Source: Bacteroidia bacterium | Lineage (GTDB): Bacteria > Bacteroidota > Bacteroidia > Chitinophagales > Chitinophagaceae | DNA: 64,000 bases | Reading direction: 5' to 3' | Assembly (NCBI GenBank): GCA_030427635.1 | Contig: JAUIBA010000017.1 | Span: 231-64,230, forward strand | In this document: piece after piece, positions 70-10,744 of the stretch | Layout: every line of letters begins with the position of its first letter | How positions within the stretch are numbered: position 1 is the stretch's first letter | Notes under the pieces: model-generated | The model's input: only the letters and a program-made list of their open reading frames with translations | Told to the model about the DNA's origin: nothing | Database searches by the model: none | Program-made: the position numbers and the translations under genes

Positions 70-93
70 GTTGCAGGCGGGGACGCCTGCAAC
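70..93. repeat. Perfect 10-bp hairpin with GGGA (GNRA) loop, REP-like palindrome
   Basis: GTTGCAGGCG-GGGA-CGCCTGCAAC read directly from the sequence. The REP-like status is inference. Confidence 0.5.
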
Positions 94-96
94 GGC

Positions 97-140
97 GAAA
101 AAACGCCAAAACGCTTAATAGTGTTGCGTTTTGGCGTTTT
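97..140 (-). terminator. Intrinsic terminator-like hairpin downstream of the degenerate ssrA 3' copy
   Basis: 15-bp perfect stem AAAACGCCAAAACGC (100-114) / GCGTTTTGGCGTTTT (126-140). The A-run on the left gives a U-tract on the minus strand. Confidence 0.7.
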
Positions 141-143
141 AGT

Positions 144-168
144 TGTGGAGTCGGCGGGGATAAGTCGA
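144..168 (-). repeat. Degenerate copy of the ssrA 3' end (old att site)
   Basis: TGTGGAGTCGGCGGG-GATA-AGTCGAAC versus ssrA TGTGGAGCCGGCGGG-AGTCGAAC (10377-10399): one substitution plus a 4-nt insertion. Confidence 0.75.
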
Positions 169-240
169 ACTTTCATGTAAAGGATTTGGATTTGTTTCTC
201 AACTAGCAGTGAGAGTTATCCAGTGTTACCAAAACTCTAT

Positions 241-963
241 TTACGATGTACGACAATTGATGCATGCCAATTCCGGTGTGCTACGAACTTCATCTAAAAA
301 CAAAAAATAACCGCCTGAAGCTTTGTTTAAAGGACGTTCGGTTTTAAAGGAATAGTACCTATCATCGACTCCAGTAATTGTAACAGGAATAGCTTTTCGT
401 CCATCCCATGACACCCACGCTCTATCTCCAGGAACAAATTCCTCTACTGTTCTTTTACTAAAATGAATCGATGTCACATTCTTGACATACACAATTTTTC
501 GCTCGTCATAGTTTTTCCGACTAGGCTTTTTCGGAGTCGTGGTATCTTTAGTTGGGTTTTCTTTTGTCTTCAAATAAGCCTTATACCTTTTCCACGCCCT
601 ATTCAGCGTCTCTATCGCACCATAGTAGGCGTTTTGAAACCTTAGATAACTACGATATTCATCCAGCGAATTGTATGTCGGCCAACTCTTATCTCTACTC
701 ATATCTCTAGCCAAATCGCCCAAAGGAGAATCCCTATTTGAATGCCTTTTTAGCCAATCAGTAAAACTCAGTTCTACAGGAGTGCTAACCGTTTCGGTGC
801 TATCATTTATTTTGCTAAGTGACCGTTGGCAGTGCATCCAATTAGAAAAACCGAAAGATTTAGACACTATGTCAAGTGCTTCTGCATGGCTGATACCACG
901 CTCCCTTTTTATTTTCTTTGCCTGACGCTTAACGTAAGCTATAGTGTGTTGATGACTTTTCAT
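241..963 (-). CDS. YozE SAM-like domain fusion protein (N-terminal helical domain, YozE-like middle, possible SH3-like C-terminus), 240 aa from ATG 963; ORF open to 1071
   Basis: SFTDWLKRHSNRDSPLGDLARDMSRDKSWP resembles YozE family motifs. The N-terminus KRQAKKIKRERGISHAEALDIVSKSFGFSNW resembles the helical domain Pfam calls Glyoxalase_8. Confidence 0.65.
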   Translation of the reverse strand: MKSHQHTIAYVKRQAKKIKRERGISHAEALDIVSKSFGFSNWMHCQRSLSKINDSTETVSTPVELSFTDWLKRHSNRDSPLGDLARDMSRDKSWPTYNSLDEYRSYLRFQNAYYGAIETLNRAWKRYKAYLKTKENPTKDTTTPKKPSRKNYDERKIVYVKNVTSIHFSKRTVEEFVPGDRAWVSWDGRKAIPVTITGVDDRYYSFKTERPLNKASGGYFLFLDEVRSTPELACINCRTS

Positions 964-1127
964 TGAAAAATCTTTTAACTCACAAGAAAAAATGTCGCTC
1001 ACCAACCACCCTCTCAATGTGAGAAAAGTTTTTTCAATTATATGAAGAACAGTACTGATACAGCTTTGCAACGGTGAGCGGCAGGCTTCTGCTAAACCTC
1101 TACTAAAGTTAGCAAATTTGTCAAAAT

Positions 1128-1163
1128 AAAAAAACCGGAAACATCAGTTCGATGTTCCCGGTT
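1128..1163 (-). terminator. Intrinsic terminator downstream of the displaced ssrA 3' copy
   Basis: AACCGGAAACATC-AGTTC-GATGTTCCCGGTT stem (one G-U pair on the minus strand) followed by a U-tract. Confidence 0.75.
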
Positions 1164-1165
1164 GA

Positions 1166-1183
1166 TGTGGAGCCGGCGGGAGT
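1166..1183 (-). repeat. Distal att core of the 9.2 kb element (duplicated ssrA 3' end)
   Basis: TGTGGAGCCGGCGGGAGT is identical to 10377-10394. Confidence 0.92.
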
Positions 1184-1241
1184 AGCGCAAAAATAGCTGT
1201 ATCGCTTTGCAGTCGTGTGTTTCAAGATTCACGTAGTTTTT

Positions 1242-1252
1242 GGGTATCAAAA
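1242..1252 (+). promoter_or_regulatory. Candidate integrase arm-type binding site GGGTATCAAAA (distal end)
   Basis: The same 11-mer occurs twice in tandem at 10267-10288 near the other att site. Confidence 0.65.
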
Positions 1253-1273
1253 TAGTAGACAAAAACAAAGCAG

Positions 1274-1513
1274 CTACTCTCTAAAAAAGTTAGGGATATC
1301 TGGTCGTTTAAGGTATTTCGCTAAGAATGCAATTGTTTCCGTATTGGGTACTTTGCCTTTTCGTTTTTTGCCTGGCATAGTCTTTATCGGCTGTGCTACA
1401 GGTGGTGCTATAGGTGTCGCTACATGTGCATTTTGTAGCAAAGTTATTATGGTATCAAGCTTTCTATTTTGTTCGGTGAGTAGCTGTATAACAGTTTTTT
1501 CATCTGGCTTCAT
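1274..1513 (-). CDS. Hypothetical protein, 79 aa (N-terminal coiled coil, basic C-terminus)
   Basis: ATG-start ORF co-oriented with the element's accessory genes. No family recognised. Confidence 0.6.
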   Translation of the reverse strand: MKPDEKTVIQLLTEQNRKLDTIITLLQNAHVATPIAPPVAQPIKTMPGKKRKGKVPNTETIAFLAKYLKRPDIPNFFRE

Positions 1514-1536
1514 GCATACAAATGTACCTGCTACAT

Positions 1537-1974
1537 TTATATGACTTTTGTAAAGTAACTGCGAAAATCAGGATTGTAAACAGTTGTAGCTTTGCCCGTT
1601 CTTACGCACTCTGTATAATTTTTTTTGCAGTAGCCTGTTTCATTGGCTCTTGCTTCAATTTCATATTTATTGCCATCATAGCCATGAAGGAGGCTTTCAA
1701 TGAGGTAATTGAAATAGTACCGAGCTAATCCTTCACGTTGGTATTGCTCCCAGTGGATAAGCTCATGATGTAGTAGTGCGGTGTTGTCCTTTTCTTTCTC
1801 ATTTACCACAATGCCGAAAGGAGGTAATGTATTGGCATTATAGCCGCCTGATTTGTTCCTTTTTATATAAATGGTAGGGGCTTGATTTTTATTTTTCTCA
1901 TTGATGACAAGAACAAAAAACACTACCACTACCACTATTGATATTAAAAATAGAAATGCAACAATGTTTTTCAT
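1537..1974 (-). CDS. Membrane-anchored HExxH zinc metallopeptidase-like protein (DUF4157/zincin-like)
   Basis: N-terminal hydrophobic helix IVAFLFLISIVVVVVFFVLVI, LLHHELIHWEQ motif and downstream NKYEIEAR. ATG 1974 lies 8 nt after the upstream stop; the ORF is open to a GTG at 1998. Confidence 0.7.
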   Translation of the reverse strand: MKNIVAFLFLISIVVVVVFFVLVINEKNKNQAPTIYIKRNKSGGYNANTLPPFGIVVNEKEKDNTALLHHELIHWEQYQREGLARYYFNYLIESLLHGYDGNKYEIEARANETGYCKKNYTECVRTGKATTVYNPDFRSYFTKVI

Positions 1975-1981
1975 AGTATAT

Positions 1982-2242
1982 CTACCAATAGTAGCCACAG
2001 TTTTTTACCAATTTTAAATCTTCCGGTGTACGAGGAAATATGATACAATTGCCCGGCCTGTAACTGTATATTGTACATTTTGATTGCTCCGATAACATAG
2101 GGCACTGACCACCAAGCTTACAACATGCACCGCCTTTTTCTCCAGACAGAGTTTCACACCGATCGGGAATACACTCGCCTTTCCGACCAGGTGTAATGCC
2201 TTTGAAAGAGTTGACAAACCTTGCTATTTTATTCGATGCCAT
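1982..2242 (-). CDS. Eight-cysteine YkgJ/CxxCxxCC-like (Zn or Fe-S chelating) protein
   Basis: C-x4-C...CC...CPML...CTIYSYRPGNCIIFP...C pattern. Start at ATG 2242 or 2254. Confidence 0.7.
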   Translation of the reverse strand: MASNKIARFVNSFKGITPGRKGECIPDRCETLSGEKGGACCKLGGQCPMLSEQSKCTIYSYRPGNCIIFPRTPEDLKLVKNCGYYW

Positions 2243-2339
2243 TTTTAAAATCATTTGAAGCTTTATCGACCAGGTATTGCATATACTCTCTGTGAAGAAA
2301 GTATATGACTGCCGCTATTATTATGATGTATTTTAGCAT
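2229..2339 (-). CDS. 36-aa single-TM micropeptide (below the ORF track cut-off)
   Basis: Manual translation MLKYIIIIAAVIYFLHREYMQYLVDKASNDFKNGIE*. It overlaps the start of the downstream cysteine-rich gene. Confidence 0.5.
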   Translation of the reverse strand: MLKYIIIIAAVIYFLHREYMQYLVDKASNDFKNGIE

Positions 2340-2375
2340 ACCGTTATTCCATTTTTGATTATTCTTTTCAAAGCA

Positions 2376-2403
2376 CAATACCCCTGCAATGGCAGGAGTA
2401 TTG
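2376..2403 (-). terminator. Hairpin downstream of the 227-aa gene
   Basis: CAATAC-C-CCTGC-AATG-GCAGG-A-GTATTG stem with one mismatch. Confidence 0.4.
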
Positions 2404-2417
2404 TGCATGTTATTGGG

Positions 2418-3101
2418 TTATTTCTTAGTTGTTTCCTTTTCAGTTTCGGTTACTGGTGTATCCACAATCTTGTAACTGCTGAAAATGCTGGCGGTGTCAA
2501 TGATGTTTGACTGTGCGCCGTTAGCTTCCCTTTCATTCAGTGCAAGGGCTTTCATTGTTGCTTTGAATTTTGAGTGCTTCATGCCTGTAGTAGGCTCAAA
2601 TACCTCTGTGTCTGCCATATGAAAGCTGTAATGAAACAACACTTCACAAATAGAGTTTTCAAGCGGTGCAAGTCCTTTGGTAATTCTGCGCTCGTTCATC
2701 TGTTTTACCAAGTCTGTTACTTCTGAGTTGGTTTTGAATACCAATGTGCCGGGTTCTATTGGCGTTTCTGCATCGTCTTCCAGTGCCGGACCTTTAGCCA
2801 CATTGTAAATGCGCAATGCTTCCAAAACTGCATCATAGGAAAGCCCCTTTATAAGTTCCTGAGCATCATCTGAAATGTCCGAGATAGTACCATCTGCTAA
2901 CAGCTCTGAATTTGTGGCTTTCTGCACAAGGTCGAGGCAAAGAGCGCCAACACTGATGTTTTTTTCATTGGATAAGATAACGAGCTGATTAAACAGGTCA
3001 ACCGGTATTTGTACCGGAATGGTGTACGGTGGCAACGGAACTGCTGGTATAGCAGAGCCGGGAGTAGTGCCGGGCTGTGGGGCGGTAATTGTGTTTTCCA
3101 T
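2418..3101 (-). CDS. Hypothetical protein, 227 aa, with a possible N-terminal ribbon-helix-helix motif
   Basis: IPVQIPVDLFNQLVILSNEKNISVGALCLDLVQKA fits an RHH strand-helix-helix pattern. TACTTTTG promoter element just upstream (3118-3125). Confidence 0.7.
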   Translation of the reverse strand: MENTITAPQPGTTPGSAIPAVPLPPYTIPVQIPVDLFNQLVILSNEKNISVGALCLDLVQKATNSELLADGTISDISDDAQELIKGLSYDAVLEALRIYNVAKGPALEDDAETPIEPGTLVFKTNSEVTDLVKQMNERRITKGLAPLENSICEVLFHYSFHMADTEVFEPTTGMKHSKFKATMKALALNEREANGAQSNIIDTASIFSSYKIVDTPVTETEKETTKK

Positions 3102-3117
3102 TGTATTGATTTTTTAT

Positions 3118-3125
3118 CAAAAGTA
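3118..3125 (-). promoter_or_regulatory. Bacteroidota -7 promoter element (TACTTTTG) for the accessory module
   Basis: Matches TAnnTTTG, 17 nt upstream of ATG 3101. Confidence 0.6.
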
Positions 3126-3256
3126 CTGGCGTGGCAAGCCGACAACAATAGACCTCAGAAAACTACAGTCTATACGGGTTGTGTTTGTAGGATTTGACGA
3201 ATATCATATGCACTCTAAGCATCTCAAAAATGTCACCGGGAAAGCCTTGTTTTCGG

Positions 3257-3640
3257 CTGCAACCCTGCAACTCCGCAACCATAATGTATAAAAGATTGAT
3301 TTCGATGTCTTTAATGGTTGCAGTTGTTTGTTGCAGTAGTCGCAGCGAACTGCAACTACTGCAACCGGATATACTGTATAGGCCCGGCAATGTCCGGGCC
3401 TTTTTCGTCTCCATGTCCGGTACAGTTATATATTTCTGTAGCTGTAGCTACAGTCTTTTTGTGCTGTAGTGCCTGCCATACAGCCAGTTATTACTATGCT
3501 GCAGCCAACAATTCTTTTTTAAAATCAAATGGTTGCAGTTAAAACCCGAACTGCAACCAACTGCAACTACTTGCAAACGATATAAAATATTGATTTTCAA
3601 TGATAATGTAATGTAAGGTTGCAGAGTTGCAAGGTTGCAA
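3257..3640. repeat. Iteron cluster, putative replication origin of the element
   Basis: 15 copies of a (C/T)TGCAAC(C/T)-like 8-mer in both orientations. Two AT-rich cores are each flanked by convergent iteron triplets. It lies directly downstream of the primase-helicase gene. Confidence 0.75.
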
Positions 3641-3693
3641 TACACTTTTCTATTTTTTGATTTTTTGCATTTTCATTGAAATGGATTGAGCAT

Positions 3694-3721
3694 AAAAAAG
3701 AGCCTGCGATGTACAGGCTCT
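3694..3721 (-). terminator. Terminator after the primase-helicase gene
   Basis: AAAAAAGAGCCTG-CGATGTA-CAGGCTCT gives a stem plus U-tract on the minus strand. Confidence 0.65.
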
Positions 3722-3742
3722 AACAACAAGATTGTGGTGTTA

Positions 3743-6502
3743 TCATACGGTACCATATACCCCGGTTCTTTGCATTTCAATGTTCAAAGCTTTGTAGTCA
3801 AATCGCCAAACTCGTTTTTTCAGGTCTTTGTCATATGGTGTGAACTCAGAGCCCTTTTGAGTTGATCTTATAGTAAATGGTTTGTTCTTTAAGAATGCTT
3901 TCAATGAAGCCTTTCCTGTTGGCGGCATTCGTTGCTTAATGCACTGCTCTGCATATTTGTTATAGACATTCTCAAACACAAAAGAAAACACCTCTACACC
4001 GGTTGCATCTATCTTGATGTGGTAGTCATAACCTTCTTTTATTTTAAAATCCGATGATAGATACTCAAGCGTTTTGAAGAAGGTTTGTATTTCGTTTGTT
4101 TCCTTCATGGCTTCATTTTGGGCATTAGCGGCAGCAATAAGAACACCTATCATTTCTTCAACGTTGATATGAAAATTCAAATGTGCTTTCAGTATGCGAA
4201 TAGGGGCTATAAGTAGTGCAATGTGTTCAATAGTTCTATCGGCCAACCCTAAATTTTTGCAACGCTCATTTTTCAGGTAGTGGATCGCCTTCCGATAAGT
4301 GTTGCCAAACTCTGCTGACATTAGTTGCCTATGCCGGGCGATCTCTACAAATATTTGTCCAAAGCCACTTTCGGCAGCATCCTTCAATATGTCTTTTGCA
4401 ACCTGTTGCTGGGTAGTAAAGTCTGTTTTTTCAAAGGTTATAGTAATTGTACGGCTGAACAATGCACTGTTTTTTTCAGGAAGCTCGTTACCATCAATAA
4501 AAATACCGCTGAATACTCCGGTCTGGTGCGTTTTGTTGTCATTGCTTGTCTGGGCCCTGTCATAGCCTACACCCTCATAGCCGGTCTTTAATAGTCCTAT
4601 TGTGGAGCTATCAACGTCATTGTTGGTATATTCCTTAATGTAGGTAAGTGCATTCTTAAATTGCGAGATTCTCCGTGCTATGCTCTTTGAAGTACTATCG
4701 TTGCTTATGCCGATACCTGGTTGCGGATTACCAAAAACAGACAAATGCAGATCAGTGAATGTAGTCTTACCGCTACCAGCTTCGCCAAACAAAAACAGGT
4801 ATGGAAATGAGGCACGTTCGGCAAAAATAATGTCCCTGAAAATTGCTGCAATAAGGTATGCATTGCCTATCGCACCATTAACGCCATATGCAGCTACCAT
4901 ATGCTTGTTATAGTCTGCAAATGAAAGGCTTCCGGGCTTGTAGATGAACTTTCTTTCATTCAGGTAAGATGTATCTTCTTTGGTAAGCTCACTAAGCGCC
5001 GGGAGGTAATAGCTGTTATCGTTACATGACACTATGCCCATCTTGTTAGCTGGTATGAAAGTAAATGTACCATCTATTATCCCATTGCTGTAGGCGTATA
5101 TATTATGCTCAGCTTGCCATCCGAGACATGCAATTTTGTGTGCTTTACTATATTGTGTGTTGTGATATTCAATTATCTTATCTAACTGTGCCTGGTTGCC
5201 AGAAAAGGAGTATCTACCTTTTGACATGATTGCGGGTTTAAATGCCGATACTGAATTGAGGTCTTTTGCAGTTAATTCTATCTGTGCAAGCTCTCCGGTA
5301 TTGCTTTGTATTTTTATATACCACTTGGCATTGTTAGAGCCATCAGGAAAGAAGTATAGAAACTCCATGATAAAGTTAGAAATGCGCTCTGCATGTGTTT
5401 TGGTCTTATACTGCTTGGTAGTGTAGTAGCAGCCATCCTTATAGTAGAATTCATTCTTTGCAAGAAACTCGTCTGCGTTTTCGCAATCTGGATTTATGGG
5501 CTTTTTAAAGTCGTCAATCTGACCTGTTCCTTCTCTATGGTTTGTTTGGGCTGTTTTTTGTTCATTTTTATGCAGTTTTTGAACTGCTTTTAAAGGTCTT
5601 TTGGTGTCAATTCCATAATCTTTACAAGCCTGAAAAAATGAAGCAAGCTGCACCTTGTTTTTGCCATTTCCTTTGAGGCAGTTAGTGTATTGAGCATTGG
5701 TTTCATCGGTATTGTACCCACTATAGAATATGCTGACCCGGTGATAGTAATCCCTTCCGGTCTCTCCGAAACCATCTGCAATTGCAAAGCCAATTTTCAC
5801 CCAATCGGCATAAGAGCCGGTAATGTCTATCCTGTTGCGCTCTATTTGTTGCAGACAGTTTTCTATATCTGTGGATTTGTCAGTAGTGGGGTAATTCGGT
5901 GCTCTGGGTGGTGTTTTCTTTTGGGGTGTGGCCGCTACAGTTATTTTGGTATATACTGCAGAGTTCTGATTGATGAATATTTCCGGGTCGTAGCTTAGGA
6001 AACAGAGCCGGGTAACATCTTTAGTGGCACGGTCTATTTTTATTTGATACTTACTGAGGTAATAGCTTTCTACTGCTAAAAATGCAGCCAAATGACTCTC
6101 TTTATCTGATGGGATTTTTACTATTAGCTTTAGCTTGTCTGATGGTGAGCTAAAACAGGCAAAAGTATATTTGTCGTTTTGCAGTGTCTTCCGGAGTTCA
6201 GCATAGCTTGCCACATCTGGCGGTAGCTCATCAATATCTATTTGAAGTAAACCGGAGTGAGAAAGGAATTTATCATTAATTCTATGTTGGTCGAATGTGC
6301 CGGACAATGTAACCTTTGGTAAGCCCTTCTTTAGTTTGCTGATGGTGTTTTTGTCGGTCTCTTTGCGTATCCGGGTAATAGTATCAGAATAGCTGATTCC
6401 CTGTATTAAACCCGTTCGGATTGCAGTAATGAGCTCACTTACGGGGACGTCACCTGCAACTGTATTCAAATTAGTATAATAACTTATTAATGGGTCGTGC
6501 AT
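3743..6502 (-). CDS. Primase-helicase: VirE N-terminal/BT4734-like domain, PriCT-2 domain and C-terminal P-loop helicase
   Basis: KLKKGLPKVTLSGTF...SGLLQIDID (VirE_N-like), SYADWVKIGFAIADGFGETGRDYYHRVS (PriCT-2) and Walker A FGEAGSGKTT. ATG 6502, with an upstream TTG at 6517. Confidence 0.85.
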   Translation of the reverse strand: MHDPLISYYTNLNTVAGDVPVSELITAIRTGLIQGISYSDTITRIRKETDKNTISKLKKGLPKVTLSGTFDQHRINDKFLSHSGLLQIDIDELPPDVASYAELRKTLQNDKYTFACFSSPSDKLKLIVKIPSDKESHLAAFLAVESYYLSKYQIKIDRATKDVTRLCFLSYDPEIFINQNSAVYTKITVAATPQKKTPPRAPNYPTTDKSTDIENCLQQIERNRIDITGSYADWVKIGFAIADGFGETGRDYYHRVSIFYSGYNTDETNAQYTNCLKGNGKNKVQLASFFQACKDYGIDTKRPLKAVQKLHKNEQKTAQTNHREGTGQIDDFKKPINPDCENADEFLAKNEFYYKDGCYYTTKQYKTKTHAERISNFIMEFLYFFPDGSNNAKWYIKIQSNTGELAQIELTAKDLNSVSAFKPAIMSKGRYSFSGNQAQLDKIIEYHNTQYSKAHKIACLGWQAEHNIYAYSNGIIDGTFTFIPANKMGIVSCNDNSYYLPALSELTKEDTSYLNERKFIYKPGSLSFADYNKHMVAAYGVNGAIGNAYLIAAIFRDIIFAERASFPYLFLFGEAGSGKTTFTDLHLSVFGNPQPGIGISNDSTSKSIARRISQFKNALTYIKEYTNNDVDSSTIGLLKTGYEGVGYDRAQTSNDNKTHQTGVFSGIFIDGNELPEKNSALFSRTITITFEKTDFTTQQQVAKDILKDAAESGFGQIFVEIARHRQLMSAEFGNTYRKAIHYLKNERCKNLGLADRTIEHIALLIAPIRILKAHLNFHINVEEMIGVLIAAANAQNEAMKETNEIQTFFKTLEYLSSDFKIKEGYDYHIKIDATGVEVFSFVFENVYNKYAEQCIKQRMPPTGKASLKAFLKNKPFTIRSTQKGSEFTPYDKDLKKRVWRFDYKALNIEMQRTGVYGTV

Positions 6503-6589
6503 TCTATGGGTTGTCAATTATTATAAAGCTATGGTTGTGAAATCTTGACAGCAATAGAGCGTGAATATTTGGTGTGTATTTACATGTTG

Positions 6590-6883
6590 TTATCGTCTTT
6601 TCCTTTCTACAAGTCGGTATAAATCTGTTCGAACGTTCTTCCCTTTTTTTCCTTTGATAATTTGTAAGTCGTATTTGTCAGATCGTACAAATACGACCAT
6701 ATCTGCCAATGCTGCTCTGATGGTATTTTGAGTACAGGAAAAGTCTGTGTCAAGAAATCTTGCATGTATTTCGGCTGCTGATAAGTACTCACCATTAGCA
6801 TGCTCAGTAAGCAGCAAAAAGACTGCATACCGGAGCTGCCCGGGGAATGTTGTTTTTTTGCTTCTTTGTGCCTCAATTCGCAT
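6590..6883 (-). CDS. Small winged-helix-like DNA-binding protein, 97 aa
   Basis: YAVFLLLTEHANGEYLSAAEIHARF...QNTIRAALADMV followed by a basic wing ending in LYRL. The fold is inferred. Confidence 0.6.
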   Translation of the reverse strand: MRIEAQRSKKTTFPGQLRYAVFLLLTEHANGEYLSAAEIHARFLDTDFSCTQNTIRAALADMVVFVRSDKYDLQIIKGKKGKNVRTDLYRLVERKRR

Positions 6884-7041
6884 TGGTAGCGGTTTTTAGA
6901 GTTTTTGGGAACTGTTTTCAGCTATTTTTCAGCCGTTTTTAGATTTTTTTTGAGGCTTTTTTGAGATATGCAAAGAGCCTCAAAAATGATAGGGTTATAG
7001 TTACTAACCTAACCTAAGCCGATAGGGCTATAGGTTCACAA

Positions 7042-7557
7042 CTAATTTGCAATTGGCTGCATTGCTTTCTTTCCATGCCTTACAACTACCTGTGTCATTA
7101 ACTTAACATTGCAGAGCATACTTATTATTTGCGCCAGTTGGACATAGATCAACCCCCGATCATCCAATGACAAGAAATAGTCTGTAGCATCGGTTGCCCA
7201 ACTCATAATTTCTGTATCGGTAAACATCCATAGAATGTCTTTCAGATCGGCACCTATGGTGATATCCTCGAAGTCAGCAATTCTGATATCCTGATTGAGG
7301 TTCATTGTTGCTTCCAATATCAGAGAAAACAACAGCGCTCCCTTAGCTGCCGGCATTGGATTATCTACAGGCGTAGATTGTATTGCATTTTGTAATATTC
7401 CTCTTATGTTTTCAGTGAGCTGCCGTCTGATTTCCCTCAATGTGAACTCCCCGAATATCTCCCTGAATACACTCCCTATTTTTTCTGTATCAGCATACTC
7501 CATATCAAACCCGGAGAGTGAGGTTGTTTTGTGTGCTACATCAATTGAATTTGACAT
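7042..7557 (-). CDS. Hypothetical helical protein, 171 aa, with an internal duplication
   Basis: IGSVFREIFGEFTLREI versus IGADLKDILWMFTDTEI. AT-rich leader typical of Bacteroidota starts. Confidence 0.7.
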   Translation of the reverse strand: MSNSIDVAHKTTSLSGFDMEYADTEKIGSVFREIFGEFTLREIRRQLTENIRGILQNAIQSTPVDNPMPAAKGALLFSLILEATMNLNQDIRIADFEDITIGADLKDILWMFTDTEIMSWATDATDYFLSLDDRGLIYVQLAQIISMLCNVKLMTQVVVRHGKKAMQPIAN

Positions 7558-7773
7558 ATCTTTGTTTTGTTTGAGATTATTAAAAAGGTTGGTTGACCGC
7601 CAGGGCTATTTTGATTATTTCAAGCCGTCCCTGCAAGGACGTACAAGATCAAATTCGTAGGCGACTGTTTAGGTCGCCTATACTTTTTCTAACTGCTATC
7701 AAATACAGGCAATATGATCTGTCTTTGCCGGTACCAGTAAATGAGCCGGGCTGCAGTACAGTTACTTTTGTAT

Positions 7774-7998
7774 TTACTGGCCATGGGATTGCATGATTGG
7801 GTTAACAGTTTTTATTACTGATGGCTGCTGTGTCAACTCACGCAATAGCACAAACGCCTCTTTTCGGGTCAATGCCTCCAGATCACTGACACGGCCGCTA
7901 CTTGCCCGCCGTATTTTCTTTAGCATTTCTCTTTCAGGCACAAATAGTGATAGTGCTTCTATTATTGCTTTCTGCCGATCTCTAATGAGGACTACCAT
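7774..7998 (-). CDS. Hypothetical protein, 74 aa
   Basis: Start overlaps the stop of the excisionase-like gene (TAATG coupling at 7998). Confidence 0.6.
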   Translation of the reverse strand: MVVLIRDRQKAIIEALSLFVPEREMLKKIRRASSGRVSDLEALTRKEAFVLLRELTQQPSVIKTVNPIMQSHGQ

Positions 7999-8285
7999 TA
8001 TGCAGCAGTTTCAACCGGTGATTCAATGAGTTTTTTCAGTTCGGCGGCTGCATAATAGGTACGACCATTATCCAGTTTTAAGCGAGTAATTTTACCCGAT
8101 TTTACCATTTTCCATATCATTCCCCGAGTACATCCCATATAGGTGCAGGCTTCAAGTGTCGTCAAATACTCCTTGTTCAAATTGTTTTGAGTATCTAAAC
8201 GCTCGATTCTTTTTTCAATTCGTAACAAAGTCATCAGAATTGTGGCGTTGTCAACGCTTTTTTTGCACTGGTCTTGTTTATTCAT
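7998..8285 (-). CDS. Excisionase-like helix-turn-helix protein (HTH_17/MerR-like)
   Basis: KEYLTTLEACTYMGCTRGMIWKMVKSGKITRLKLDNGRTYYAAAELKKLIE. Divergent from the repressor. Confidence 0.85.
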   Translation of the reverse strand: MNKQDQCKKSVDNATILMTLLRIEKRIERLDTQNNLNKEYLTTLEACTYMGCTRGMIWKMVKSGKITRLKLDNGRTYYAAAELKKLIESPVETAA

Positions 8286-8329
8286 AAATTGTTACTTTTA
8301 TGTCAGGTGTACAATATTATGTAAATATA

Positions 8330-8365
8330 CGTACAAAAGTATGCAAATGTGCAATCTTTTGTACG
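8330..8365. promoter_or_regulatory. Inverted repeat (candidate operator) overlapping the TACTTTTG promoter of the xis-like operon
   Basis: CGTACAAAAG (8330-8339), 16 nt spacer, CTTTTGTACG (8356-8365). The -7 element is at 8334-8341 on the minus strand. Confidence 0.6.
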
Positions 8366-8381
8366 CATTCTTTTTGTTAAA

Positions 8382-8960
8382 ATGGATATTGGGAAAAGAA
8401 TAAAAGAAATTGTTGAGAGAAAAGGAATGAAAATGGAGCATGTATATAACTCCATTGAAATGACCAATGCCGGTTTCTACCGGATGCTGAAAAACAATTC
8501 TTTTAAGGTAAGTACTTTGATAAAAATTGCTGATTTGCTGGAAGTTCCAATCGAGGCATTCTTTTCTGATGAAGCAGATGAATTGCGAGATAAATTAGTA
8601 GGTATAATACAGGCTACAAAGGATATAGAATGGGGGATTAGACTTTGGAGTTTATGTGGCCATTCTGCTATTGAAAAGCTTGAAAAGATACTACAACAGG
8701 ACCCCCGAAATGGTAAAGAAATTCAGGAAATAATTGAATTAATAAAGAAAACGGAAGTAAACAGCAATAAGTGGCTATATAGGCATTTTACCGATGAGCA
8801 AATGAAAGCAAAAGATGCTCTCGAAAATGACTGGACAAACATTGTTAAAAAGCATATAGATGCTAATTATGCAACAGAAGAAGAGTTAACACAAGCTCTT
8901 CAAACTGATATGTGGGAAATAGTTGAAAAATATATTCTTGTATTTGACAGAAAAAAATAG
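8382..8960 (+). CDS. XRE/Cro-C1 HTH repressor with a helical C-terminal domain
   Basis: MDIGKRIKEIVERKGMKMEHVYNSIEMTNAGFYRMLKNNSFKVSTLIKIADLLEVPIEAFF is an HTH_XRE pattern. No S24 peptidase motif is visible. Confidence 0.85.
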   Translation: MDIGKRIKEIVERKGMKMEHVYNSIEMTNAGFYRMLKNNSFKVSTLIKIADLLEVPIEAFFSDEADELRDKLVGIIQATKDIEWGIRLWSLCGHSAIEKLEKILQQDPRNGKEIQEIIELIKKTEVNSNKWLYRHFTDEQMKAKDALENDWTNIVKKHIDANYATEEELTQALQTDMWEIVEKYILVFDRKK

Positions 8961-8968
8961 CCTTTACA

Positions 8969-10186
8969 CTATATCCAGTCTGTAATTTTCTTCAAATGCT
9001 CCTTTACCTTATCGCTCCCAACATGAATGTAAATCATTGTCGTTTCGACCTTGCTATGCTGTAGCAGCTCCTGCACTATGGGCAATGGTACACGCCATAC
9101 CAGGTAAGTGGCAAAGGTGTGCCTACCCACATGATTAGTTAATTTGGTTTGTACTCCAGCCATAGCTTGTATTTCTTTCAGTTGCCTGTTTACATATTGG
9201 TTGTTTGCGCTGCTTGTCTGCTGGGTTTTCAGCGATAGAAAGAAGGGGTGCTTATCATCACGCCAATACTTCTTAATGAGCCGCTCCGGGCGGCTCTGCC
9301 TGCCTTTGTCTCTGAACAGGTAGGCAAGCGGCAAATTGACGGTCTTGTTTTCCTTCTCTGATATCATACGTACCTCAATACCCTCATTGGTTTTGTGTAC
9401 ATGCTCTTTGCTGAGCCGGGAGGCATCGCTAAACCTCAATCCGGTATAGCATTGCAGTAGAAACAAATCCCTGATTACTTCAAGGTGCTGCTGTGCCGGC
9501 ACAAACTTTAATCCTTCGAGGCTTTTCAGTTCTTTATCTGTGAGGCTATACCGGGTAGTTTTATCTGCTATTATTTTTTTATCAGGGAATGGGTTTTTAT
9601 TATGCTCGAGCAAACCATGCCTCACAGCAAGCCTTGCATATTTTGCAAGTGTTTTAAAGTACAGTTTCCTTGTGCTGGGGATTAAACCTTCACTGATCAG
9701 ATAGTAATCGAAATCATCAATCAGTTTATTGTTGAGTTGCGCAAACGTTACGCCGGTTTTTGAGAACTCGTGAAAGGTGTTGATAGTTTTTTTATACTTT
9801 ACCTGTGTAGCTGCTGACAGGTTCTTTTGCTTCTCAATCTGCGCCAGTGTAAATGAAATAAAGCTCTCCCCGGCTGCAAGATTCTCCATTGCATTTTTGA
9901 GATCATAAACAGAAAAATCGGGGTTTGTTCTGTTGCGTTTATGTTCAATGTCTTTGCATTGTTCAATGAACTGAATTACCCTGTTATTGAGATCGTAGCT
10001 ATCCGGGTGCTTTATCACCATGCATTTGCTGTTATCCCAACTTGCCGGCTTTACATAAATGCCAGTACTGAAATATACTCTTGCTGCATCCTTGTACGCT
10101 TCAATTTGTATCAGACCGGTACCGTCTTTGTTGAGCTGTTTTTTGCGGTTATATACCGGTGTATAGCGGATTGCCTTTTTACTCAT
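8969..10186 (-). CDS. Tyrosine integrase (arm-binding, SAM-like and catalytic domains)
   Basis: Catalytic motifs YTGLRFSD, HVGRHTFAT and LQHSKVETTMIY. Adjacent to ssrA. Confidence 0.95.
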   Translation of the reverse strand: MSKKAIRYTPVYNRKKQLNKDGTGLIQIEAYKDAARVYFSTGIYVKPASWDNSKCMVIKHPDSYDLNNRVIQFIEQCKDIEHKRNRTNPDFSVYDLKNAMENLAAGESFISFTLAQIEKQKNLSAATQVKYKKTINTFHEFSKTGVTFAQLNNKLIDDFDYYLISEGLIPSTRKLYFKTLAKYARLAVRHGLLEHNKNPFPDKKIIADKTTRYSLTDKELKSLEGLKFVPAQQHLEVIRDLFLLQCYTGLRFSDASRLSKEHVHKTNEGIEVRMISEKENKTVNLPLAYLFRDKGRQSRPERLIKKYWRDDKHPFFLSLKTQQTSSANNQYVNRQLKEIQAMAGVQTKLTNHVGRHTFATYLVWRVPLPIVQELLQHSKVETTMIYIHVGSDKVKEHLKKITDWI

Positions 10187-10266
10187 GGCAGCGAAACTAC
10201 CCGGGAGTAATGGCCTGACATATAGAAGGGATTTTTTTACCCTCTATTCTGCAATTCAAAAAAAAC

Positions 10267-10288
10267 GGGTATCAAAAGGGTATCAAAA
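10267..10288 (+). promoter_or_regulatory. Tandem candidate integrase arm-type sites (2 x GGGTATCAAAA)
   Basis: Exact tandem 11-mers about 90-110 bp inside the ssrA-side att site. A third copy is at 1242-1252. Confidence 0.65.
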
Positions 10289-10320
10289 GAAAGTAAACAC
10301 CATAGAACTCATAAAAACAC

Positions 10321-10345
10321 AAAACCCCTGATTGTCAGGGGTTTT
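10321..10345 (-). terminator. Element-supplied terminator for ssrA
   Basis: AAAACCCCTGA-TTG-TCAGGGGTTTT palindrome about 30 nt downstream of the tmRNA 3' end. Confidence 0.75.
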
Positions 10346-10378
10346 GTACAAAAAGTGAACGTTAAAAAACAACGTCTG

Positions 10379-10744
10379 TGGAGCCGGCGGGAGTCGAACC
10401 CGCGTCCAAACATTTGCCCGATATGCTTTCTACATGTGTATTACGGCATTAATTGTGGGGAGGTGGCCGGAGCCGCACAAACCTACTACCTCCTTACCTG
10501 CTGAAGTTTTCATCCTGTACACGCAGTGGGCACAGGCCTATCCGGTTATTGTTTGATTCGGCGGCGGGGACGGCAACTGGCAGCCTTCCCGGCGGCTATA
10601 AAGGGTGTCTAATCTCTGATTAGGCAGCCATGGCGTAAGAATATTCGCCTTCTATTGGTTGGGTATTCAGATTAACGTGCTAATTACACAACGCACGACA
10701 TGCTTACACACCCTGCAGAAATGCTGTCAAAACCGGTCGGCCCC
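10379..10744 (-). ncRNA. ssrA: tmRNA; tag peptide GEYSYAMAA encoded at 10620-10649
   Basis: 5' end GGGGCCGACCGGTTTTGACAGC, 3' end GGGTTCGACTCCCGCCGGCTCCA, alanine-type acceptor stem with a G-U pair, and an internal tag ORF ending YAMAA-TAA. Confidence 0.97.

Follow-up and report, generated by a model that had tools for sequence, protein, structure and literature searches.

The present analysis concerns an island of about 9.2 kb (positions 1166-10394) in a 64-kb stretch of Bacteroidia DNA, referred to below as the window, which is inserted at the 3′ end of the tmRNA gene ssrA. This island is very probably a mobile integrative element, and its autonomous replication after excision can be expected with good confidence. 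Its dependence on a helper is probable; the identity of that helper, a phage or a conjugative element, is not readable from the sequence alone. A phage is proposed for this role with less than even confidence, and the whole chain, i.e., an intact, replicating island of ~9.2 kb that is not self-transferring, depends on a helper and takes a phage route, is likewise held tentatively. At least five sibling islands of ~9-12 kb have a common backbone with it and are located at tRNA or ssrA sites.

Integration and switch modules at ssrA

The elements that define the island and its putative recombination and control functions are as follows.

1166..1183: attL core, 18-nt exact repeat, TGTGGAGCCGGCGGGAGT
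10377..10394: attR core, 18-nt exact repeat of TGTGGAGCCGGCGGGAGT, which is the 3′ end of the tmRNA
10376..10744, minus strand: ssrA (tmRNA), intact and full length, its 3′ end being the integration target
8969..10186, minus strand: tyrosine integrase of 405 aa with an arm-binding N-terminal domain
10267..10288, plus strand: two tandem putative arm-type sites, GGGTATCAAAA, 89 nt inside attR
1242..1252, plus strand: third putative arm-type site, GGGTATCAAAA, 59 nt inside attL
10317..10349, minus strand: hairpin with a T-run, just inside the island and next to attR
8349..8960, plus strand: XRE-type repressor (HTH_26)
7998..8285, minus strand: excisionase (recombination directionality factor) of the HTH_17/AlpA type, 95 aa, xis
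8286..8381: divergent control region with a palindrome of 19-nt arms (8327-8368) and GTACAA direct repeats
144..1165: older tandem segment with a degenerate att copy (144-161), a hairpin (1133-1163) and an open reading frame (ORF) of 276 aa

The preliminary description of this DNA had placed an island with exact 18-bp att repeats at ssrA. Both copies of TGTGGAGCCGGCGGGAGT are indeed present at its proposed ends, with a spacing of 9211 nt, and none is expected by chance: shuffled sequence gave zero matches to the core even when three mismatches were allowed. The proposed position holds for these two copies, but the att array reaches further to the left, where a third, degenerate copy (144-161) matches the core at 15 of 18 bases and is continued by ..GTCGAAC as in the tmRNA. 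The target gene itself is complete. ARAGORN placed a tmRNA with the tag peptide GEYSYAMAA at 10376-10744 on the minus strand, and Rfam RF00023 aligned to it with 126 bits over model positions 1-374 of 374. The GC content of the island (0.38-0.44) is lower than that of the flank (0.46-0.51).

The integrase was matched by Pfam PF00589 (Phage_integrase, 4.6e-19), PF13102 (Phage_int_SAM_5) and PF17293 (Arm-DNA-bind_5), as well as by PHROG integrase families. The catalytic motifs, described earlier as intact, were all found by eye in its translation (GLRFSD, HVGRH, LQHS and MIYIH). Since this protein carries an arm-binding domain, the copies of GGGTATCAAAA are the expected arm-type sites of an attP: the 11-mer has three perfect copies in the 64 kb, all of them at the island ends and in one orientation, and TRF gave a period of 11 for the tandem pair. 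Moreover, downstream of both att copies, in the sense in which ssrA is transcribed, there is a hairpin with a T-run (10349-10317 and 1163-1133). Therefore, the element would give the interrupted ssrA a new terminator, and the hairpin at 10317-10349 is the predicted replacement supplied by the element. The layout of the terminator on the ssrA side is matched in two siblings, L287 and L289, in which TTTGATAC repeats, related to GGGTATCAAAA, occupy the equivalent place.

The divergent switch between a repressor and xis, another claim of the preliminary description, was also recovered. The repressor was matched by Pfam HTH_26 (3.8e-4) and by PHROG families of transcriptional repressors and regulators, and its true start is probably the ATG at 8382 (MDIGKRIKE...) and not the GTG at 8349. 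The opposite gene was matched by Pfam HTH_17 (PF12728, 2e-7), by the excisionase family TIGR01764 (3.6e-7, above cutoff) and by a PHROG excisionase family. The palindrome between these divergent regulators has a perfect 10-nt core (CGTACAAAAG / CTTTTGTACG) and, together with the GTACAA repeats, is a plausible candidate operator. On the minus strand upstream of xis, TACTTTTG at 8331-8338 resembles a Bacteroidota -7 promoter box. A divergent homolog of the repressor is present at the equivalent position in L285, L287 and L289.

Left of attL, the segment 144-1165 looks like a decayed earlier island that was inserted in tandem at ssrA. Its sole ORF (241-1071, minus strand, 276 aa) contains a YozE_SAM_like domain (Pfam) and a Glyoxalase_8/DUF5623-like N-terminus, and a further hairpin (100-140) adjoins the degenerate att copy on the left of this 1-kb segment. 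The metagenome data that contain the island are assembled Logan contigs of two biofloc runs (X1, X2), which come from different studies and have identical contig sets and depths; probably, the same data were deposited twice. The contigs of both runs end at window positions 71-101 with three alternative continuations, which suggests a repeat or strain variation directly to the left of the island array. The remaining ~50 kb of the window is ordinary Bacteroidota chromosome with purH, UvrB, cargo proteins of the type IX secretion system (with Por_Secre_tail domains) and a histidine kinase, and a Chitinophagaceae-like host, as indicated by the secretion cargo proteins of the flank and by the relatives of the replicase (see below), is plausible.

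Replication module and sibling islands

The predicted replication module comprises the replicase gene, the gap that follows it, and the first gene after this gap.

3743..6517, minus strand: primase-helicase of 924 aa with an AEP primase-polymerase domain (BT4734-like_N), PriCT_2 and a DUF927-type P-loop helicase region (Pfam)
3699..3721, minus strand: terminator-like hairpin directly 3′ of the replicase gene
3257..3640: predicted replication origin, two inverted clusters of CTGCAAC iterons around a hairpin-bearing centre
2418..3101, minus strand: family-specific core protein of 227 aa with an N-terminal ribbon-helix-helix and a conserved helical C-terminal domain

In agreement with the preliminary description, a primase-helicase is followed directly by iterons. 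In addition to the Pfam domains, the replicase matched primase and primase/helicase families of PHROG and the NCBIfam family PrimPol, and its DxD motif (D94, D96) and Walker A residues (G578, G583, K584) are invariant in the replicase alignment (A1). The window contains 21 copies of CTGCAAC, of which 10 are located within 3257-3624, and the 641-nt non-coding gap (3102-3742) contains 12 TGCAAC cores in both orientations. The outer iteron triplets form inverted repeats ~340 nt apart. Folded as single-stranded DNA, the origin region is far more stable than its shuffled versions (z = -9.4).

A gap with iterons after the replicase is also found in the siblings, and each element has its own motif: CTGCAAC (12 copies) in the window, AACCACA (9) in L001, TTACTACAA (11) in L285, ATGTCACAA (10) in L286, CTTACCTA (10) in L287 and AAAGTGTAAA (11) in L003. 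Because the iterons keep their position, while each element has an iteron sequence of its own that varies together with the replicase, the replicase and the gap iterons are best read as a cognate replicase/origin pair. This is the best reason to regard the island as a replicon. The replication competence claimed for it earlier is therefore well supported at the level of the family, both by the separate iterons of each sibling and by a replicase slot that appears exchangeable. The replicase of the window has no match to PF13148 (DUF3987) or PF19263 (DUF5906), whereas PF19263 is found in the replicases of L285, L286 and L287. In L289 the slot is occupied by a rolling-circle initiator (Rep_1; Pfam 1e-8, above the gathering score).

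The 227-aa protein is the first gene after the origin and has ~10 homologs among 1.84 billion representative proteins. Wherever the context is available, these homologs are placed after a replication gene (L285, L286, L287 and L289). A DUF5906-type primase-helicase, a gap of ~380-390 nt and the homolog follow one another in L285 and L286; a BT4734/PriCT_2/VapE/DUF5906 protein precedes a gap of 410 nt in L287; and in L289 an ORF of 57 aa stands between Rep_1 and the homolog. The AlphaFold2 model of the window protein, built from an alignment of 10 sequences, reached a pLDDT of 59.8. Its comparison with PDB and BFVD gave nothing significant: weak similarity to ribbon-helix-helix proteins of the Arc, Reg576 and NikA type was found, and the C-terminal domain had no match.

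The remaining backbone is conserved to a variable degree. The integrases of L287 and L289 are 57-58% identical to that of the window, and xis is 50-61% identical in L285, L287 and L289 (50-51% for the HTH_17 proteins of L287 and L289). In L285 the integrase is 95% identical over 63 C-terminal residues, while the other genes are only 37-61% identical to those of the window, a pattern that is read as mosaicism. L287 and L289 are located at the 3′ end of a tRNA-like gene, with a second core copy 10.3 kb and 11.5 kb away, respectively. These two islands (L287:1-10364 and L289:1-11583) have the same tRNA-type att site, nearly identical integrase-proximal arms and a common host flank with genes for a hemerythrin, a response regulator and a histidine kinase. 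Their replicons differ (a BT4734/VapE primase-helicase in L287 vs. the Rep_1 initiator in L289), and so does their cargo (Fic vs. SEC-C, an M78 peptidase and a sigma-like protein), which is a clear case of module swapping.

Two further islands, L001 (~11 kb, at tRNA-Arg) and L003 (at tRNA-Ala), were recognised by their full-length relatives of the replicase. In L001 (6447-17789) the replicase is 36% identical and the integrase is located at the tRNA-distal end. The AACCACA iterons are followed there by a 244-aa protein, which occupies the slot of the 227-aa protein and has a similar N-terminal ribbon-helix-helix-like stretch; as a counterpart of the 227-aa protein it was rejected, the profile comparison being not significant. 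The cargo of L001 consists of an M15 peptidase, SocA_Panacea and a HEPN protein. The metagenome of L285 (Ga0214164_1004261) also contains an 84-kb contig, L220 (Ga0214164_1000047), which breaks off precisely where a tmRNA with 85% identity to that of the window has its 3′ end. A break of the assembly at an ssrA att site that is occupied would explain this, and a link between L285 and L220 is tentative.

Relatives of the replicase were found in metagenome-assembled genomes of Chitinophagaceae and Chitinophagales. Full-length homologs with 25-29% identity are also carried by IMG/VR viral contigs of ~41-43 kb and by one of 96 kb, and the helicase half matched annotated primases of Microcystis, Flavobacterium and Cellulophaga phages. 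On these matches, the replicase is regarded as phage-related. Six phage-like contigs with full-length homologs (L085, L086 and L087 from IMG/VR, ~42 kb each; L004, L006 and L016) have hosts of the Sphingobacteriia/Cytophagia type, and in L004 a ClpP-type head-maturation gene (CLP_protease) is located near the replicase homolog. These contigs are candidate relatives of the helper or of the donor of the replicon. In 60 Bacteroidota genomes, a census of 137 ORFs that follow related primases gave recurrent helix-turn-helix (HTH) regulators, DNA methylases, small terminase, portal and restriction-type proteins; there was no relaxase among the 25 most frequent of the 74 families. The expectation that Mob genes follow such Bacteroidota primases was abandoned on this result, although rare cases may occur outside these 25 families.

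Accessory genes, transfer route and rival explanations

The rest of the island consists of small ORFs on the minus strand.

7774..7998, minus strand: ORF of 74 aa, overlapping the xis stop codon (ATGA), no Pfam, PHROG or NCBIfam match
7042..7557, minus strand: ORF of 171 aa, no Pfam, PHROG, NCBIfam or PADLOC match
6590..6883, minus strand: basic ORF of 97 aa, directly upstream of the replicase, no family match
1274..2408, minus strand: distal cargo of four small ORFs (a 59-aa membrane protein, a 90-aa CxxCxxCC protein, a 153-aa HExxH protein and a 79-aa protein)

For the 74-, 97-, 171-, 59-, 90-, 153- and 79-aa ORFs, the search for relatives covered the family libraries and the phage and plasmid records. 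The 74-aa ORF has a 45% identical homolog at the equivalent position in L285. The 97-aa protein may, judging from its sequence, be a winged-helix DNA-binding protein, and the single-sequence AlphaFold2 model of the 171-aa protein was unusable (pLDDT 36.5). In the distal cargo, the 90-aa Cys-rich protein gave a weak CxxCxxCC (YkgJ-like) match (5.7e-4), while the 153-aa protein has an N-terminal membrane anchor and a HExxH motif (HELIH) and matched phrog_37302, a family of unknown function, with 1e-7. The genes of these two proteins overlap (1537-2254) and may form a small two-gene accessory unit. PADLOC detected no defence system among the cargo ORFs, and neither the island nor its siblings contain a gene of a known defence type. 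As stated in the preliminary description, no recognisable packaging-hijack protein is present among the accessory genes, none having matched one in Pfam, PHROG or NCBIfam.

The same three libraries gave no match to capsid, portal, terminase or tail proteins, and none to relaxase, coupling protein, MobC-type or mating-pore proteins, in any ORF of the island or its siblings. The earlier statement that the island has neither packaging nor conjugation genes thus stands for the capsid, terminase and relaxase, but its conjugation part has to be qualified by a NikA-like domain in the 227-aa family. An element that lacks its own capsid, terminase, relaxase and mating genes would probably have to be exported by a helper, and neither a helper phage nor a conjugative element is present in the 64-kb window.

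The proposed mechanism can be outlined as follows. In the integrated state, the repressor would keep the leftward operon (xis, the small ORFs and the replicase) off. A helper signal would lift this repression, so that Xis and the replicase are made, and Int and Xis would recombine the 18-nt cores into a circle of ~9.2 kb. The helicase would then be loaded head-to-head on the inverted CTGCAAC iterons, the AEP domain would prime synthesis and the circle would be amplified; the symmetry of the predicted origin fits such a head-to-head loading of hexameric helicases. The copies would leave the cell by the helper machinery, most likely as concatemers in unmodified helper-phage capsids, as in PICMI and VEIMEs. 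The ribbon-helix-helix protein would probably act as a DNA-binding factor for the distal operon or for the marking of DNA for transfer. The phage-capsid route is rated as the most likely one because the replicon is related to those of phages, the regulatory logic resembles that of SaPI and PICMI, relaxases are lacking in the wider family and the size is suitable, i.e., four to five units of ~9.2 kb would fill a head of ~40 kb. A further-reaching version appears doubtful: that the island and its siblings are the first defined phage-satellite family of Bacteroidota, made up of minimalist elements whose replicons can be exchanged (an AEP-primase/SF3-type helicase, a VapE/DUF5906-type helicase or a rolling-circle Rep_1, each with private iterons), and in which the 227-aa protein, as a new type of determinant, steers the amplified DNA into the capsid of a ~40-kb helper phage.

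Several observations weigh against a mobile, phage-borne satellite. No small terminase, pac or cos site, capsid-remodelling or phage-interference gene is recognisable in the island. When the accessory genes were compared by tblastn with 50,697 phage records, none had a homolog, and blastn of 1166-8300 against phages gave no match. The description of the island as a candidate phage satellite is only partly sustained: the order int, repressor, xis, primase-helicase and ori and the intact appearance agree with it, but no result shows that the element is a phage satellite. Among 2.9 million IMG/VR contigs, the 227-aa family is absent and the integrase has distant and partial matches only. In the 227-aa family, NikA-like (PF21983) matched two of ten members with a best E value of 1.9e-6, and there are other members that resemble CopG or TacA weakly. 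Since NikA-type proteins are relaxosome accessory factors that bind oriT, this family points towards conjugation; ribbon-helix-helix domains also occur in ordinary repressors. Population data give no sign of recent mobility, as the island proteins are singleton 90% clusters on one contig of 89,958 nt in ~15 billion proteins' worth of data, so that the public data searched contain no close copy. An exact search of the metagenome contigs for an empty attB found none, and a wider search of tmRNA 3′ ends (120 loci, four with distant integrases downstream and five with a second core copy) found no relative of the island. The assembled contigs show one ~89.5-kb contig with flat depth and no alternative junction, and thus no direct sign of excision, circularisation or extra copies; contigs from two identical-looking runs are uninformative about excision.

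The conjugative indications are best accommodated by a serious rival, which is nevertheless considered unlikely, namely that the island is a relaxase-less integrative mobilisable element (IME) of the iOriT/MGI kind. The 227-aa protein would then serve as a relaxosome accessory factor for an oriT located within or close to the repeat-rich gap, the relaxase and the mating apparatus would be borrowed from a co-resident conjugative transposon, elements of a kind common in Bacteroidota, and the primase-helicase would maintain the excised circle or prime the complementary strand. Besides the NikA-like matches, the conservation of the 227-aa gene directly beside a structured intergenic region agrees with this account, and the order int, xis, small ORFs, primase, (site) and mobilisation slot parallels the one that NBU1 reportedly has. 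IMEs without a relaxase and with a single accessory factor are known (MGIVchHai6 and MGIVmi1, tabulated in PMC5704250; iOriT class, PMC11389934). As far as the summary in PMC5704250 goes, the excision of NBU1 needs int, the recombination directionality factor, two further genes, oriT and part of mob (Shoemaker et al., 2000). However, the library scans that found no relaxase, coupling or MobC-type protein apply to the siblings as well, the 227-aa protein of the window has no Pfam match itself, and its C-terminal domain, as aligned across the family, lacks an invariant His or Tyr such as an HUH nuclease would need. The repeats covary with the replicase, as is expected for an oriV rather than an oriT. 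The rarity of relaxases downstream of related primases (none in the 25 most frequent families) and the lack of a conjugative element in the window also count against mobilisation, as does the result of tblastn against 72,556 plasmids, where a single weak match was obtained (E 1e-3, HExxH region of the 153-aa ORF); otherwise, the phage and plasmid records matched only the 276-aa ORF, which is located outside the island.

It is also conceivable, with a low probability, that the island is an integrated plasmid-like replicon or a domesticated island, which excises and replicates without a dedicated helper route and spreads rarely by generalised transduction, vesicles or transformation, or is inherited vertically alone. 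The lack of any recognisable transfer determinant, the confinement to a single contig with no empty site found, and the decayed neighbour at 144-1165, which shows that insertions at ssrA can become fixed and erode, are in line with this. On the other hand, at least five siblings, which differ in host and in att site, keep the compact architecture and have exchanged modules in a mosaic manner, a pattern that implies ongoing horizontal movement and selection on the whole set of modules. In addition, the island has exact att cores, intact arm sites and core ORFs that are all open. An origin as a defective prophage, from which the genes for structure and lysis were deleted, is very improbable. In its favour, the replicase family is common to viral contigs, mostly of ~41-43 kb, and the repressor, excisionase and integrase all match PHROG families; but neither pseudogenised structural genes nor fragments of them were found, the 227-aa gene is absent from phage records as well as from IMG/VR, and the siblings are equally small (~9-12 kb) and keep the same order up to the second att core, which is unlike the outcome of random deletion.

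Comparison with known systems

Helper-dependent islands are thought to explain many genomic islands whose movement is unclear, and their characterisation has been confined almost entirely to Pseudomonadota and Bacillota. In SaPI and other PICI, the integrase is followed by a master repressor, a divergent operon on the xis side, pri-rep, an iteron origin and accessory genes. General accounts of these islands are given in PMC9618062 and PMC11389934. The preliminary description had likened the island to this order, and the order int, repressor, xis, primase-helicase and ori is real. As in SaPI and PICI, the integrase is accompanied by flanking att repeats, the master repressor is divergent, and the iteron origin is located directly 3′ of a replicase with which it appears mutually specific across the family. 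In contrast to them, the island gave no Pfam, PHROG or NCBIfam match to a module for packaging or interference (terS, ppi, cpmAB, rpp or capsid genes); its repressor is a generic XRE protein that resembles Stl by architecture alone, and the homology is limited to generic domains.

PICMI (phage-inducible chromosomal minimalist islands) of Vibrionaceae are defined by an integrase, AlpA/HTH_17 and a DUF3987/DUF5906 primase (PMC10803314). The comparison with them, drawn earlier, is apt in that the siblings carry DUF5906-type primases, but membership cannot be claimed. The island has the tyrosine integrase (PF00589) and the AlpA protein (PF05930 or PF12728) by which PICMI are recognised, small ORFs between xis and a large primase, and no capsid or terminase genes; the overlap of its xis stop codon with the next ORF (ATGA) is much like the int/iolg overlap of PICMI. 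It differs in its site (ssrA in Bacteroidota, with siblings at tRNA or ssrA, vs. a position next to fis), in its size (9.2 kb vs. ~6 kb), in the possession of a divergent XRE repressor and a conserved ribbon-helix-helix core protein, and in the AEP (BT4734-like) N-terminus of a replicase that lacks DUF3987 and DUF5906 matches. The helper, the induction and the packaging of concatemers belong to PICMI, whereas the island is known from its genes alone.

Closer to the host group are the VEIMEs (virion-encapsidated integrative mobile elements), marine satellites without major capsid genes that carry an integrase, AlpA and a primase/helicase; some of them are integrated in Flavobacteria (PMC9618062), and capsid-less satellites in Bacteroidota therefore have a precedent. 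The island is similarly small, with an integrase, AlpA and a primase/helicase and without major capsid genes. VEIMEs, however, are defined as concatemers recovered from virus particles, while the island, known from its sequence, was compared with them by description, and neither the missing 227-aa family nor the distant, partial integrase matches in IMG/VR extend the likeness. The tmRNA-adjacent intY islands of Pseudomonas include I55, and transduction by a jumbo phage was shown experimentally for one of them (PMC12595487). By description, they resemble the island in their position directly downstream of tmRNA, short direct repeats, a tyrosine integrase with alpA, replication-type genes and the lack of genes for autonomous transfer. 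They are larger, belong to another phylum and carry recognisable defence systems, for which the island has no PADLOC match.

Among mobilisable elements, NBU1 also resides in Bacteroidota, with a tyrosine integrase at a tRNA-type 3′ end, an Xis-like factor and a dependence on a helper, and a primase-family gene reportedly stands upstream of its mobilisation slot. It has a MobP relaxase and an oriT and is described as non-replicating (PMC5704250), whereas the island has no relaxase match but a helicase-fused replicase and an iteron origin. With P4-like satellites, the island has only the primase-helicase function in common, no other hallmark (Psu, Sid, Delta or cos) having been matched.

Summarizing, the island shows the generic features of these families but is assigned to none of them, since each family with a testable hallmark has at least one defining feature that is missing here (packaging module, fis site, relaxase, defence cargo); a limited text search of the literature found no satellite family of Bacteroidota beyond the VEIMEs integrated in Flavobacteria. 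If inert, it would be an ordinary genomic island. If mobile, it would offer a small and concrete system for the movement of islands in Bacteroidota, by phage capsids or by the abundant conjugative transposons, in a phylum whose satellites have so far had no experimental study, and it would provide practical parts for Bacteroidota genetics, such as integrases specific for ssrA or tRNA genes with their arm sites and self-contained replicon cassettes. Compared with the known systems, the architecture is familiar, and what is new is the phylum, together with the exchangeable replicon slot and the rare but conserved ribbon-helix-helix protein of a compact, modular family, in which a conserved backbone of integrase, switch and excision functions is combined with a replication slot for unrelated replicases.

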